DNA from: a virus
Reading direction: 5' to 3' (one strand)
DNA: 64,000 nt
Virus record (IMG/VR): IMGVR_UViG_3300037231_000119
Span: 1-64,000 of that record
The translations under genes and the position numbers were made by a program. Of the stretch, positions 43,399-50,143 are shown in pieces; the stretch's first letter is position 1, and every line of letters starts with the position of its first letter. The notes under the pieces were generated by a model. That model did no database searches and was not told the origin of the DNA. It saw only the letters and a list, made by a program, of their open reading frames with translations.

Positions 43399-43501
43399 TG
43401 TCGATCTTTTATACAAACGTATTGATCTTAGACGCGTTACTAATGACACACTTTAATGATTTCACATAGTTACGGCGCAATAGTTTGGCCTACCCATTGC
43501 A
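43399..43501 (+). promoter_or_regulatory. sigma54 promoter P1 with tandem UAS and IHF-like site
   Basis: TTGGCCTACCCATTGCA 43485-43501; GT-N11-AC sites at 43399 and 43418. Confidence 0.8.
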
Positions 43502-43512
43502 GTTACCCTCTC

Positions 43513-44013
43513 ATGGGAACACACTTTGAAACTGAAGTCTGCTCTAGATGCCATGGTTCAGGTAAATACTCCTTTTGCGAGCGATACGCCGACCGTTGTT
43601 TTAAATGTGCCGGTCAAACGGTCGTGCTGACTAAACGCGGCGCCGCAGCTAAGACCTATCTCGAAACATTGTGCTCTAAACCCGCTAGCTCCCTCATGGT
43701 TGGAGATCGTATTTCTAGAAATAGTGTGACTTATGGCGGTTCTGTGTATTCCTACATCGCAACCGTGACCAAAGTTGAGGATGCTAACGATTCCCAGTCT
43801 GGCACGGTTATTGATGGTCAAACCGTTTGGACTAATAACAAAAATGTCTGCATAACAACGGAACATCCTAAGTATGGCATTGTGGGCCTGATATGCTCCC
43901 CAGATAGTCTCGTTAGGACATATCCTGTTGATAACGCTGCTAAAATCGCTATGGCATTGGAATATCAGGCAAAATTGACTAAACAAGGCAAACCGCGAAA
44001 GGTCTCTATATGA
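43513..44013 (+). CDS. protein with DnaJ-type zinc finger; probably leaderless mRNA
   Basis: CSRCHGSG...CFKCAG; ATG lies 12 nt after the -12 GC. Confidence 0.75.
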   Translation: MGTHFETEVCSRCHGSGKYSFCERYADRCFKCAGQTVVLTKRGAAAKTYLETLCSKPASSLMVGDRISRNSVTYGGSVYSYIATVTKVEDANDSQSGTVIDGQTVWTNNKNVCITTEHPKYGIVGLICSPDSLVRTYPVDNAAKIAMALEYQAKLTKQGKPRKVSI

Positions 44014-44274
44014 AAACCCGATTTAGTACGATCGAACAAGTTTGGGAAGCGATTGAGAACGGTAAAGAAGTTTTTTGGTGCAATGACTCCTACCATCTCA
44101 CAATAGAGAACCCATCTCACAATAGAGAACCTATCTCCCTTCAGTGACACATTTACCTTGAAAGATGGCAAGTTGCTTAGAGTTACCTATATTGAGAACT
44201 ACTTTGGGTCTCTCCTACTAAAATCAGAGATTCCAAAGCTATACTGCTATGGCCCTATAAAGATGGTTGCCTAA
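44010..44274 (+). pseudogene. 81-aa gene frameshifted by a 19-bp tandem duplication
   Basis: CATCTCACAATAGAGAACC x2 (44094-44131); removing one copy gives an ORF to TAA 44272-44274. Confidence 0.8.
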
Positions 44275-44360
44275 GTCTTTTACACTGTATACTAGTTCTA
44301 CGGTTATTTTACTTCAGATTTCAATAGTTTCGCGTACTTATCTTTGGCACGCTGTTAGCA
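44268..44360 (+). promoter_or_regulatory. sigma54 promoter P2
   Basis: TTGGCACGCTGTTAGCA 44344-44360; UAS TGTATACTAGTTCTACG 44286-44302. Confidence 0.85.
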
Positions 44361-44649
44361 TTACCTAGTACCGTACAGATTGAAAAACAAACTAGGAGAA
44401 CTCAATATGACAATTCAAATTGGTGATTTATACCCAGTTGGGATGATTTTTACAACTGACGATGGTCGTATGTATATCGCTGACGGCAGCTATAGACGCG
44501 AAAAAGACGAGACTCCGATGGGAACGAAGGACTAGTATGAAATTATCAAAGTATGACAAGAGGTATTGAATATGAAACCCCAAACACTCATAGTTTATAC
44601 GACTCTCCTAATAACTGCCCTAATCGACCTAATGGCGCGGAGTTAATTT

Positions 44650-44985
44650 ATGACTATCAAGAAATACATACAAGTGTGTGATCCTGGACATGGTTGGCTG
44701 AAAGTACCTAGGGCAGACTATGACGCTAGCGGTTTCAAGGCTAGCTCCTTCAGTTATCAATCGGATAATAGTAAGTACATCTACCTTGAGGAGGATTGTG
44801 ACCTATACGGGTTTTTGAAGGCGGCCGGTCTCCTAATGCCTTTCAATGGCTCATGGGCTATTGATAGATCTAAAGTCGAGATAGCCTATAAGCATGTTAA
44901 TAAAACTTCGATTAGGGATATGCGTCCTATCTCCCTAATGACTAGGGCGGAATATGAAAGTCGATTTAAAACCTTGAATCTCTAA
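44650..44985 (+). CDS. conserved phage hypothetical protein (DPGHGWL...YLEEDCD)
   Basis: Motif pattern recognised from phage proteins; function unknown. Confidence 0.8.
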   Translation: MTIKKYIQVCDPGHGWLKVPRADYDASGFKASSFSYQSDNSKYIYLEEDCDLYGFLKAAGLLMPFNGSWAIDRSKVEIAYKHVNKTSIRDMRPISLMTRAEYESRFKTLNL

Positions 44986-45000
44986 ACTGAAAGGATTAAT

Positions 45001-46900: not shown

Positions 46901-46901
46901 T

Positions 46902-47507
46902 ATGATTACCAAAATTGACCTATCTATGAGCAGTATTGACCGCAATGAAATTTATGCGTCATTGGATTCTAAAGCTATCCTCGAAAAGTTTGAATTGCAT
47001 GACGTCAATAAGCTTTTAGAGGATAATGAGGATATTTATTGGACCGGCGAAGCTGAAAAGTATCTAAATGAGACTTTAGGCCTTGAAGTTGTTTGGAGCG
47101 GCAATACCTATAACCATGAGTCAGATCTAACCGATATCATGCAATGGGCCATTATGGCACCTAAAGGCTCTGAACTCTATTCAGACGGCATTCTATTGGT
47201 TCAATTACATCATGGTGGCGACGCACGCGGTAACTATGGGAGTGTCAAGGCATACAAATGGGAAGGAGAAGACACATTCTTCTTTCTAGACACGGTCGTG
47301 GGGTGGTATATTACCGATTTGGAAGGTGAAAGACTCGAAACCAATTTAACTCGGCGTTTCGAATCGGGATATTCTCAAAATCCCACATATGAACTCAATA
47401 AGCATATCGTCAAAATTATTGAAATCAGTGAAGAATCGGCCAAAATTGAATTGGATGATGGCACGGTATGCAATATCAGTCCCGAACATTCGGCTAACTG
47501 GGCTTAA
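46902..47507 (+). CDS. acidic hypothetical protein
   Basis: NTYN.E..L...Q...HGGDARGNY pattern. Confidence 0.8.
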   Translation: MITKIDLSMSSIDRNEIYASLDSKAILEKFELHDVNKLLEDNEDIYWTGEAEKYLNETLGLEVVWSGNTYNHESDLTDIMQWAIMAPKGSELYSDGILLVQLHHGGDARGNYGSVKAYKWEGEDTFFFLDTVVGWYITDLEGERLETNLTRRFESGYSQNPTYELNKHIVKIIEISEESAKIELDDGTVCNISPEHSANWA

Positions 47508-47846
47508 TCCGAAAAGTGAATTTTAAGGGGAATCTATAGTGCTCTTATCAAAAGGAACTAATATGTTTAATAAGAAGCTGTATAAGTTTATGATCAATGG
47601 TAAGAGATACTATACATGCGCCTATTCCGCCGATCAAGCATGGTTCTTCATTCAATGGCGCATTGAAAATGGTAACCCATAATATGCAAGTTAGAATTAG
47701 TTCTAATATATGTGATCTATCGGGAGTAGGGCTTGAGTACCTGCTAGACGACTCAGGATCTATTAGGGCGGTCTTTTGGAATGGCAATATAGATGGTTGC
47801 GAGACGATTCAGGGCAATTCAGAGATAACCAAGGGTGTTGCTTAAC

Positions 47847-47938
47847 TGTCTAAGGTTTTCAATCCGTATAAAAGATATACGGCATTCTTTTACTGCATAC
47901 ACGATTTTATTAGCTTTTATCTTGGCCCTTCGATTGCA
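47847..47938 (+). promoter_or_regulatory. sigma54 promoter P5 (44-bp core duplicated from P3)
   Basis: TTGGCCCTTCGATTGCA 47922-47938; UAS CGTATAAAAGATATACG 47865-47881. Confidence 0.85.
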
Positions 47939-47951
47939 ATACTATATAACC

Positions 47952-49894
47952 ATGAGAACGATAGAAATAACCTACAAGATCAAGGGAGAATTGAAAGAAT
48001 CGAGTTACAACGTTCGGACTAGTGGGGAAGCGATTAGGCTCCTTCTAAGCGGTCTGTCTAGACGTGATAAACTCAGTTTCAAAATAGTCAAAATATCAAT
48101 GATTTGAAAGGATTATATGGCCAAGATTATCGATTTAAAGACTCGGGAAGTGTTAGCTGATCTGCCAGTAAAGTTGACTAGTCGCGTAGTGACTCTTTGG
48201 GCATCTCCTAAGAAATTCAACTTGTATGCCATTGCCGTGACTTCCTTCGGTGCATCTACATATCTGGGAAATATAACGGGTCCCATCAAAACGATTACAA
48301 AGAAAGTAGGATAATGTGTTGAAACTTAAAAAGACTTATGAATTTGAAAAAATTGGCTTGAATGAAGTAATCGGATTGAAAGTTGCAATGGAAGAAGTTT
48401 TGCAACCAATTGTGAACCATCTAGAGCGGTCAATTCATTGGATTGATGATCTTAAGTTTTCCGAGACTGAGTACCGCTCTAGGGATGGTTTTATACCCTA
48501 TGAGTCAAATTGCGGTGGAATGGAATTGTGCGAGATTATCCCAAAGTGTGAGGAATATAACTTTTCATTCCTAGAATTTGGGGAATGTGACGAATGCAAT
48601 GGTGAAACGCAATGCGGTTATGAAGGTATGGAGTGTGCGGGCGATTCGGAGGGCCATAATGATGCTAAGTTGCGCGTATGGCTTAAGTTCGAAGGTATTG
48701 AGAATGGTATCATGAGTTTCTATCTCGTTCTATCTGGCGGCAATGGAGATGCGCCATACTTCAGGGAGAAGTCTTCTACTACATACTTTGAAAGTGAATT
48801 CAAAGCTTGCTCACTTGAGGCATTCAAACGAATCGCAACGGGGCATGTTGCCGAACTATTGAAGGTAATGAAGTAATTCAAAAGTGAATTTTTGAAAGGA
48901 ATATATGAATAAAGAAATCAAAGCATTGAACAATAAATTGGCCAACATTTCAGATAACGAATTTGCGATCAAACAAGAATTGCAACTGGCCTGGAATAAA
49001 GTGTTTGACGATATGAGTGTCCTTCGTGATGCAATTACCAAAGTTGAAGCGTCCAATGAGTACACTTGGGAGTCTAGAGGCGAGGATATTTGTTCCTGGA
49101 TTCGATTCGATACTAAGTCTTTTGATGATTGTGCTGAGTATCTGAAAGAATACTTGAGGAATGAACATTACGTCGAAATTGACTTCGAAAACGATGCTTT
49201 GTTGTATTCCATGGGTCCATCTATTATCATCAATGAGGATGGTGACGTCCTAGATCAAGACGGCGATAAATGGTTCATCAATAAGGATGATTATCGAGAC
49301 GAGGATTCTGGCGACTTGAATGAAGGTAAACGAAATGAATTGATTGAAGCTTATATGGAAAAAACGGGTTGCTATCCTGGAGTATTCCGCACCGACCGTC
49401 ATGGCAATGTTTTTGCGGTCAGTACTAAAGCCTGAAAAGTGAATTTTAAGGAGAACTAAACTATATGAACCACTACTTTACATTGTTTTTCACTGAAGAC
49501 TATGAGCCAACTGATCAAGAGATACATTACTTTGAAGCCTTTACAGGTCGGGAGATAGGTGTAGGAGATGGATTCATTAATGTGTATACGATTGACGAGA
49601 CCATCATAAAAGACTTGATCGATATTATCGGCGAATTCTACATCAGTGAAGTTAGTCCTGCTTTGACCGTAGAAGTGAATTTTAAGGAGAATTGATATGT
49701 ATACATTTATTGTTCTAGTAACCGATGAACCGATGCAGTCCTTCACAAGTGTAGTATCAGCTATTGATTATGCGGCCAGACATGTCTATCTGCCAGTGGA
49801 AAAAGGGCGTGCTTGTTGTAAGGCGCTTAATGAGGGAAGACCATATGCATATAGTTATGGATTTAAAGAAGTAGAAATTAGAGTGGAGAATTGA
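47952..49894 (+). other. small, mostly acidic CDSs (47952-48107, 48117-48314, 48316-48876, 48905-49435, 49465-49695, 49697-49894)
   Basis: Packed ORFs with SD sequences. Confidence 0.75.
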
Positions 49895-50049
49895 TATGAC
49901 CGCATTCGTAATCGGCTTAGGTATTGTCTGGCTAGTAACCGCCTTATCGGGAAAGGATTTCAAAGTCACGGGCTTTGGAGGCATCCTCCTCGCTATAGGT
50001 ATCTGTTATGGACTGGGATCTTTAGTTCTACTTCTTTTAAAGAGGTAGG

Positions 50050-50143
50050 TGTATAGCAGATTAACAGCCGACAATAAGTTACCCGAAAAGTGAATTTCAG
50101 CATCCAATAATTTCAAGTACTTAAGCTTGGCACAACAATAGCA
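50050..50143 (+). promoter_or_regulatory. sigma54 promoter P6
   Basis: TTGGCACAACAATAGCA 50127-50143; IHF-like TTTCAAGTACTTA; UAS TGTATAGCAGATTAACA 50050-50066. Confidence 0.85.

Follow-up and report, generated by a model that had tools for sequence, protein, structure and literature searches.

Six predicted sigma-54 promoter cassettes in a large uncultured phage resemble the control regions of a Bdellovibrionota gene set

Phages are generally thought to begin infection with strong sigma-70 promoters or with polymerases of their own. One classical enhancer-dependent sigma-54 promoter is glnAp2, which has two 17-bp NtrC sites with TGCACC half-sites. Here, we analysed the first 64,000 nucleotides (the window) of the IMG/VR virus record IMGVR_UViG_3300037231_000119, in which six elements located between positions 43,399 and 50,143 (P1 to P6) have the layout of enhancer-dependent sigma-54 promoters. 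As in glnAp2, a GG-N10-GC core is found together with paired 17-bp inverted repeats placed upstream on a fixed helical face, and an AAA+ activator is predicted to be required. Unlike in glnAp2, the half-sites read YGTMTA, the sites lie nearer the core (centres at about -76/-95 or -86/-105), no E. coli-type integration host factor (IHF) site was found and the virus carrying the cassettes has no gene for any of the proteins involved.

The sigma-54 promoters of the Pseudomonas aeruginosa phage YuA reportedly serve its virion and lysis region. Since some YuA promoters depend on the host sigma-54 factor, according to the passage of PMC10914365 that cites Ceyssens et al. 2008, sigma-54-dependent phage promoters are not new in principle. 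YuA is like the phage described here in encoding neither an RNA polymerase nor rpoN nor an activator and in using host sigma-54 in part, which was shown experimentally for YuA and is predicted from sequence here. The two phages belong to unrelated families and, given the host proposed below, to unrelated host phyla. Unlike in YuA, the cassettes described here serve small accessory and anti-defence genes, and their tandem activator sites are complete and have a counterpart in a gene set of the presumed host phylum. What is new is that the tandem enhancers are complete and helically phased, that they serve an accessory and anti-defence island of hypervariable content and that they directly match a gene set of a presumed host phylum.

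The whole record is 162,446 bp long, is rated complete by CheckV, has a G+C content of 43% and carries contractile tail and DnaE-type polymerase genes. Its sole cultured relative in the phage collection is the distant Myxococcus phage Mx1 (OR576727), with 32% identity for the DnaE-type polymerase, 40% for the tail sheath and 47% for the major capsid protein; the two phages have similar genome sizes and share a pair of genes encoding a helicase and a sigma-like protein. All six elements belong to a block of at least ~26 small genes on the + strand, from 43.4 to ~54 kb and flanked by blocks on the - strand, which we call the island. The island had no nucleotide match among 50,697 phage records and an Rfam scan of it found no family.

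An earlier note on this DNA, made from the sequence alone, had described six TTGGC..GG-N10-GC elements, each just upstream of a gene, and all six were recovered at the positions it gave. The pattern TTGGC-N7-TWGCA (TTGGCNNNNNNNTWGCA) has 6 matches in the window, while 0.26 are expected and none of 100 shuffles reached 6. All of them are on the + strand within 43.4-50.2 kb and each directly precedes a gene of the same strand:

43485-43501, + strand: P1 core, TTGGCCTACCCATTGCA, with GG at 43487-88 and GC at 43499-500
44344-44360, + strand: P2 core, TTGGCACGCTGTTAGCA, preceding a small open reading frame (ORF) that starts at 44407
45348-45364, + strand: P3 core, TTGGCCCTTCGATTGCA, preceding the HicA-like gene at 45398-45595
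46694-46710, + strand: P4 core, TTGGCCCTTACTTTGCA, preceding the ORF at 46748-46900
47922-47938, + strand: P5 core, TTGGCCCTTCGATTGCA, with the same letters as the P3 core
50127-50143, + strand: P6 core, TTGGCACAACAATAGCA, preceding the S-adenosylmethionine (SAM) lyase gene

The GG-N10-GC spacing is exact in the six cores, five of which score 12/12 on YTGGCMC-N5-TWGCW. Scanning the rest of the phage genome, as the earlier note had proposed, revealed a single extra core, lacking an upstream site, on the - strand at 154462. Start codons are found 12-45 nt downstream of the cores, with a Shine-Dalgarno sequence in four of the six cases. At P1, only 11 nt separate TTGCA from the ATG at 43513 (43496-43515), so that the P1 mRNA is predicted to be leaderless; at P5, the ATG at 47952 follows TTGCA after 13 nt (47933-47954), with a predicted leader of ~3 nt. 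The six cassettes form three paralogous pairs (P1/P4, P2/P6 and P3/P5), within which TTGGC and TWGCA were retained while the spacers of the cores diverged; a 51-nt stretch that includes the P5 core shares 98% identity with P3. A sigma-70 reading of the motif was also considered and rejected, as hexamers spaced by 15-18 nt around TTGGC/TTGCA left no usable -10 element in P1 or P2. Sigma-70-like promoters are not in excess in the island (25 versus 29 expected), and no other promoters are evident for its genes.

Aligning the upstream regions with MAFFT revealed two adjacent 17-bp inverted repeats with the consensus YGTMTA-N5-TAKACR, in addition to a conserved A/T-rich block, in line with the one or two 17-bp semi-palindromes per core that had been reported in the earlier note. 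These candidate activator sites, scored against the 12 consensus positions, are as follows:

43399-43415 and 43418-43434: P1 tandem sites, TGTCGATCTTTTATACA and CGTATTGATCTTAGACG, both 11/12
44268-44302: P2 sites, distal TGCCTAAGTCTTTTACA (10/12) and proximal TGTATACTAGTTCTACG (11/12)
45291-45307: P3 proximal site, TGTCTACTAGTTCTACA, 11/12
46607-46642: P4 sites, distal CGTATAACTTTCATACA (11/12) and proximal CGTATAGTTCTTAATCA (10/12)
47865-47881: P5 proximal site, CGTATAAAAGATATACG, the sole 12/12 palindrome of the genome
50050-50066: P6 distal site, TGTATAGCAGATTAACA, 10/12; at the proximal position, a degenerate sequence overlaps a AAAGTGAATTT element

Sites are in tandem in P1 and P4, second sites being weaker elsewhere; as the earlier note had also seen, some are degenerate, namely the proximal ones in P4 and P6 and the distal ones in P2, P3 and P5. 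The phage half-sites are varied (CGTATA, TGTATA, TGTCTA and TGACTA) and the sites mostly paired. When the 162 kb were scanned with the 17-mer, just 11 positions scored at least 11/12, six of which lie within 100 bp upstream of P1-P5, while P6 has its 10/12 site. Since the consensus was derived from these same sites, this count is partly circular, and independent support comes from related phages and from bacterial genomes. A joint scan of the genome for core plus site returned exactly these six cassettes, compared with a mean of 1.2 in Markov-simulated genomes. The exact promoter pattern had no match in IMG/VR.

From P1 to P6, the proximal site ends 51, 42, 41, 52, 41 and 42 nt before TGGC, which corresponds to 53, 44, 43, 54, 43 and 44 nt before GG and reproduces exactly the distances listed earlier. 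The two classes differ by 10 nt, fitting a dependence on the face of the helix, and the alignment traces them to a 10-nt insertion that P1 and P4 carry between the conserved A/T-rich block and TTGGC. The earlier note had also placed an IHF-like site in each cassette, a claim that was not confirmed: the E. coli consensus WATCAANNNNTTR reached 8/9 at just two places, each directly adjoining the -24 element and neither lying between enhancer and core. The spacers are rich in A/T, and in P3 and P5 T-tracts recur at ~10-nt intervals; a bend intrinsic to the DNA or another protein of the host could possibly take the place of IHF. We also considered the palindromes as terminators; the P5 site alone was flagged, as a weak hairpin followed by Ts, and the bacterial data presented below favour a protein-binding site. 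IHF part aside, the layout of upstream activator sites and -24/-12 core in front of small early-type and anti-defence genes agrees, by sequence, with the earlier description.

None of the proteins that would serve such promoters was found in the phage. A six-frame search of its whole genome gave no match to Sigma54_DBD, Sigma54_CBD or Sigma54_activat and no GAFTGA-like motif was found in it, while none of its three Walker-A ORFs, including a SAM-lyase-domain protein and a RecA-like protein, matches Sigma54_activat in Pfam. The absence of an encoded activator, noted earlier for the window, therefore extends to the entire 162,446-bp phage, in which neither an rpoN gene nor a gene for a bacterial enhancer-binding protein was found when searched for as the earlier note had suggested. 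Since the phage has neither sigma-54 nor an AAA+ activator, a host enhancer-binding protein would be required.

To look for bacterial counterparts, one genome for each of 185,579 species was scanned with the pattern CGTATA-N5-TATACG-N35-65-TGGC-N7-TTGC. This variant gave 17 matches, close to a rough chance estimate of ~30, and among these one in Bacteriovorax, and possibly one in a Syntrophobacteraceae genome, is promoter-like. The former is found in a metagenome-assembled genome (MAG) of Bacteriovorax stolpii (G006; 40% G+C), in which the tandem sites TGTCTAAAGTTTAGACA and CGTATAAGGGTTATACG, 18 bp apart, are followed after 38 nt by TGGCATCAGACTTGC, upstream of an aminotransferase-like gene. 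The same MAG has 20 YGTMTA-N5-TAKACR sites versus 5 for a control pattern, and a sigma-54 core is located 37-88 nt beyond 6 of its ~16 distinct sites. It also has rpoN and at least 12 Sigma54_activat genes.

The pattern GTMTA-N5-TAKAC-N36-66-TGGC-N7-TTGC has at least one exact match in 126 of 401 Bdellovibrionota genomes, with 4-6 matches in some of them, while a reversed control pattern gave 4 matches in total across the 401 genomes; none of 100 further Pseudomonadota genomes and none of 80 further Desulfobacterota genomes has a match. Among 34 bacterial loci (32-41% G+C), the gap between site and TGGC falls into classes of 37-43, 48-51 and 56-61 nt, spaced by ~10 nt, and the phage gaps (41, 41, 42 and 42, then 51 and 52 nt) fit the first two. 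The bacterial genes form a phylum-wide set headed by TGTCTA-N5-TAGACA (for example L130:5690-5777, L139, L143, L145 and L149-L178), and at least one locus (L130) has sites in tandem with a spacing of 18-19 bp. Nearly all of the downstream genes in these loci encode proteins with signal peptides, and few belong to families, with a subtilase, a collagen-like surface protein and a DAHP synthase/chorismate mutase among them. No published description of this Bdellovibrionota sigma-54 gene set was found in a literature search. The phage cassettes are like this set in their half-site family, their 17-bp geometry, their A/T-rich centre and their TGGC distance classes, and TGGCC and TGGCA cores are common in both. 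The suggestion of the earlier note that a host NtrC-family activator is involved gains support from this site-plus-core architecture being widespread on Bdellovibrionota chromosomes.

A second line of evidence comes from related phages. While polymerase peptide patterns retrieved no relative from IMG/VR, a profile built from two capsid proteins, those of this phage and of Mx1, reached 78 related IMG/VR loci, many on 150-177-kb contigs. In one relative with a capsid ~55% identical (G005), four cassettes are present at 5140, 156433, 158412 and 160107, in the equivalent region, which is divided across the ends of its record. One of them precedes a HicA-like gene of its own and has a perfect site, CGTATAACTTTTATACG; another (~156433-156460) precedes a homologue of the P1 gene with the identical TTGCA+11 nt+ATG spacing, so that a leaderless mRNA is predicted in both phages. 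Cores nearly identical to that of P6 are found in G005 (TTGGCACGAAGATAGCA) and in another relative, G004 (TTGGCACAAAGATAGCA), and cassettes are located at 10737 in G004 and at 58117 in G643. The type of site and the core are thus common to relatives at ~55% capsid identity, while their cargo genes are largely non-homologous: at least 3-4 of the 26 island proteins have homologues in G005 and at least one in G001, the closest complete relative. On these comparisons, the control cassette is conserved among relatives, the cargo is not and the content of the island is hypervariable. Unlike these relatives, Mx1 has no TGGC-N7-TWGCW match in its genome, which makes the cassettes a trait of one subclade rather than of the phage family.

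Considering these findings, we propose that host sigma-54 RNA polymerase would read the -24/-12 cores, while a host enhancer-binding protein would bind the YGTMTA-N5-TAKACR repeats, the proximal one ending 41-42 or 51-52 nt before TGGC and thus on the same helix face in both classes. By way of a loop or bend in the DNA, the bound activator would then touch the closed complex and use ATP to open it. The cassettes would be copies of the control regions of the Bdellovibrionota sigma-54 gene set, which encodes mostly exported proteins and is found chiefly in low-G+C predatory Bacteriovoracia. Consequently, the island, with six transcription units of small genes that include those for a SAM lyase, a pentapeptide-repeat protein, a HicA-like protein and a zinc protease-like protein, would be on only while the host activator is active. 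We give a probability of about 0.72 to this whole account, in which host sigma-54 polymerase and a Bdellovibrionota activator switch on a phage island. It appears quite likely that the six elements are sigma-54 cassettes served by a host activator, a claim in which rpoN dependence and the action of the activator are deduced from the layout. That the host belongs to the Bdellovibrionota, as suggested by the match between the cassettes and the control regions of the sigma-54 gene set of this phylum and by a similar G+C content, is mildly favoured; within this phylum, low-G+C Bacteriovoracia would be the most likely hosts.

Several observations weigh against this account. The -12 element of P2 and P6 reads TAGC instead of TTGC. 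In the B. stolpii MAG, none of the 12 activator genes lies beside the sites. Most bacterial promoters have a single site, usually a near-perfect TGTCTA/TAGACA one, together with ordinary leaders and exported-protein genes, whereas the phage cassettes usually have two, more varied sites and two phage units look leaderless. A search of 151 Bacteriovoracia genomes did not find the phage capsid profile and gave weak matches only for a collagen/PA14 lipoprotein-like gene of the phage, and the phage, at 43% G+C, slightly exceeds the range of the matching bacterial loci (32-41%). The pattern comparison covered three phyla, the Bdellovibrionota, the Pseudomonadota and the Desulfobacterota, whereas the host of Mx1 belongs to the Myxococcota. 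Among the relatives, G001 (87% capsid identity) has cores without good sites at the thresholds used, and a strict cassette was found in one (G643) of five further relatives, the four others being complete and without a strict match.

The motif could be a phage-specific promoter that merely looks sigma-54-like and is read by a phage factor, and a candidate exists: a 344-aa sigma-like protein (positions 110832-111866 of the record, G000; L003:6832-7866) whose homologue in Mx1 is named "putative RNA polymerase sigma factor" (35% identity at E 5e-56). Its match to Sigma70_r2 is weak (E 0.012), and its gene comes after the helicase gene, as in Mx1. Yet Mx1 has the same gene and no TGGC-N7-TWGCW, so that this protein, which is probably a late-gene factor of the phage family, does not explain the motif. 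Moreover, two blocks one helical turn apart are the signature of sigma-54, unlike the -35/-10 geometry of sigma-70-family members, and the same site-plus-core cassette is found at hundreds of bacterial chromosomal loci without such a phage, which makes a phage-encoded reader very improbable. The cassettes might instead serve chiefly as decoys, sequestering the sigma-54 holoenzyme of the host or the activator and silencing the host gene set. Sigma-54 holoenzyme is known to make stable closed complexes, and six cassettes per genome copy would multiply with replication. Such a role would leave unexplained why every cassette is aimed at a gene with a start codon close downstream, in most cases preceded by a Shine-Dalgarno sequence, why the P1 spacing between TTGCA and ATG is kept in G005 and why cassettes are distributed one per operon, not packed, in front of genes that have no other evident promoter. 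We consider it improbable that the cassettes are mainly decoys instead of productive promoters, although decoy and promoter roles are compatible with each other.

The remaining alternative concerns the host. The cassettes could be true sigma-54 promoters in a phage whose host lies outside the Bdellovibrionota, if the site is shared with another phylum or arose by convergence; the sampling of three phyla, the Myxococcus host of the nearest cultured relative and the finding of no spacer, prophage or gene-transfer link to the Bdellovibrionota all leave room for it. On the other side, five features match together (half-site, 6-N5-6 geometry, A/T-rich centre, tandem spacing of 18-19 bp as in L130 and helical distance classes), the scan of 185,579 species gave one convincing tandem site, which is in the Bacteriovorax MAG, and Mx1 itself lacks the motif. 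A host outside the phylum is thus rather unlikely, and we retain promoters served by a Bdellovibrionota sigma-54 polymerase and activator as the preferred reading.

The content of the island fits an early or counter-defence block, its early timing being suggested by gene content. The candidates for counter-defence functions among its small same-strand genes are those for the SAM lyase, the pentapeptide-repeat protein and the HicA-like protein, while most of the remaining genes have no family match. The genes with recognizable features are:

43513-44013, + strand: zinc-ribbon (CxxC...CxxC) protein, first gene after P1, with a homologue in G005
45398-45595, + strand: HicA-like small protein (PF07927, E 1.8e-4; 22 bits, below the curated cut-off of 27 bits)
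46138-46602, + strand: exported protein with an HExxH zinc-protease motif and a weak SprT-like match, headed by P3
50172-50582, + strand: S-adenosylmethionine lyase of the phage T3 gp0.3 anti-restriction type (PF23780, E 2.5e-18), first gene after P6
50604-51584, + strand: DUF7666 and pentapeptide-repeat protein, following the SAM lyase

A second SAM-lyase domain (PF23780, E 1.5e-6) forms the C-terminal part of a 619-aa protein encoded elsewhere in the phage (positions 88932-90791 of G000; L002:4932-6791), so that the phage has two SAM lyases, one of which is behind P6. Within the small ORF at 44010-44147, a perfect 19-nt tandem duplication (two copies of CCATCTCACAATAGAGAAC) is present at 44093-44130. 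Between 47513 and 54180 on the + strand, in the right half of the island, 12 copies of a second repeat, (A/G)AAGTGAATTT, lie at gene junctions, most of them running on into TAAGGAGAA and a start codon; the window has 13 copies, where 2.6 are expected, and the repeat is also found in G001. It may represent a common cassette for translation initiation or RNA processing. A 9-bp G+C-rich stem (GGGCCACCC ... GGGTGGCCC) at 43353-43389, where the divergent gene blocks meet at the left edge of the island, may be a boundary terminator. Immediately to the left of the island, a short tyrosine-recombinase-family gene (188 aa; PF00589, E 8e-18) is located at 40118-40684 on the + strand.

A promoter kept off until an ATPase activator of the host acts would make phage expression conditional on a host signal. 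No phage of this size came up for the Bacteriovoracia in a literature search. We tentatively suggest that this is a large Bacteriovoracia phage using the exported-protein cassette of its predatory host, so that the island would fire only when the host activator is on, a state that is possibly one stage of the predatory life cycle. The base-by-base match to a chromosomal set would predict the host of an entire clade of uncultured phages of 150-177 kb and yield a shortlist of ~12 candidate activators per genome, while also pointing to a sigma-54 gene set of predatory bacteria that encodes exported proteins and is apparently undescribed in the literature. If this is true, cis-regulatory matching could be used to assign both hosts and host regulators to uncultured phages.

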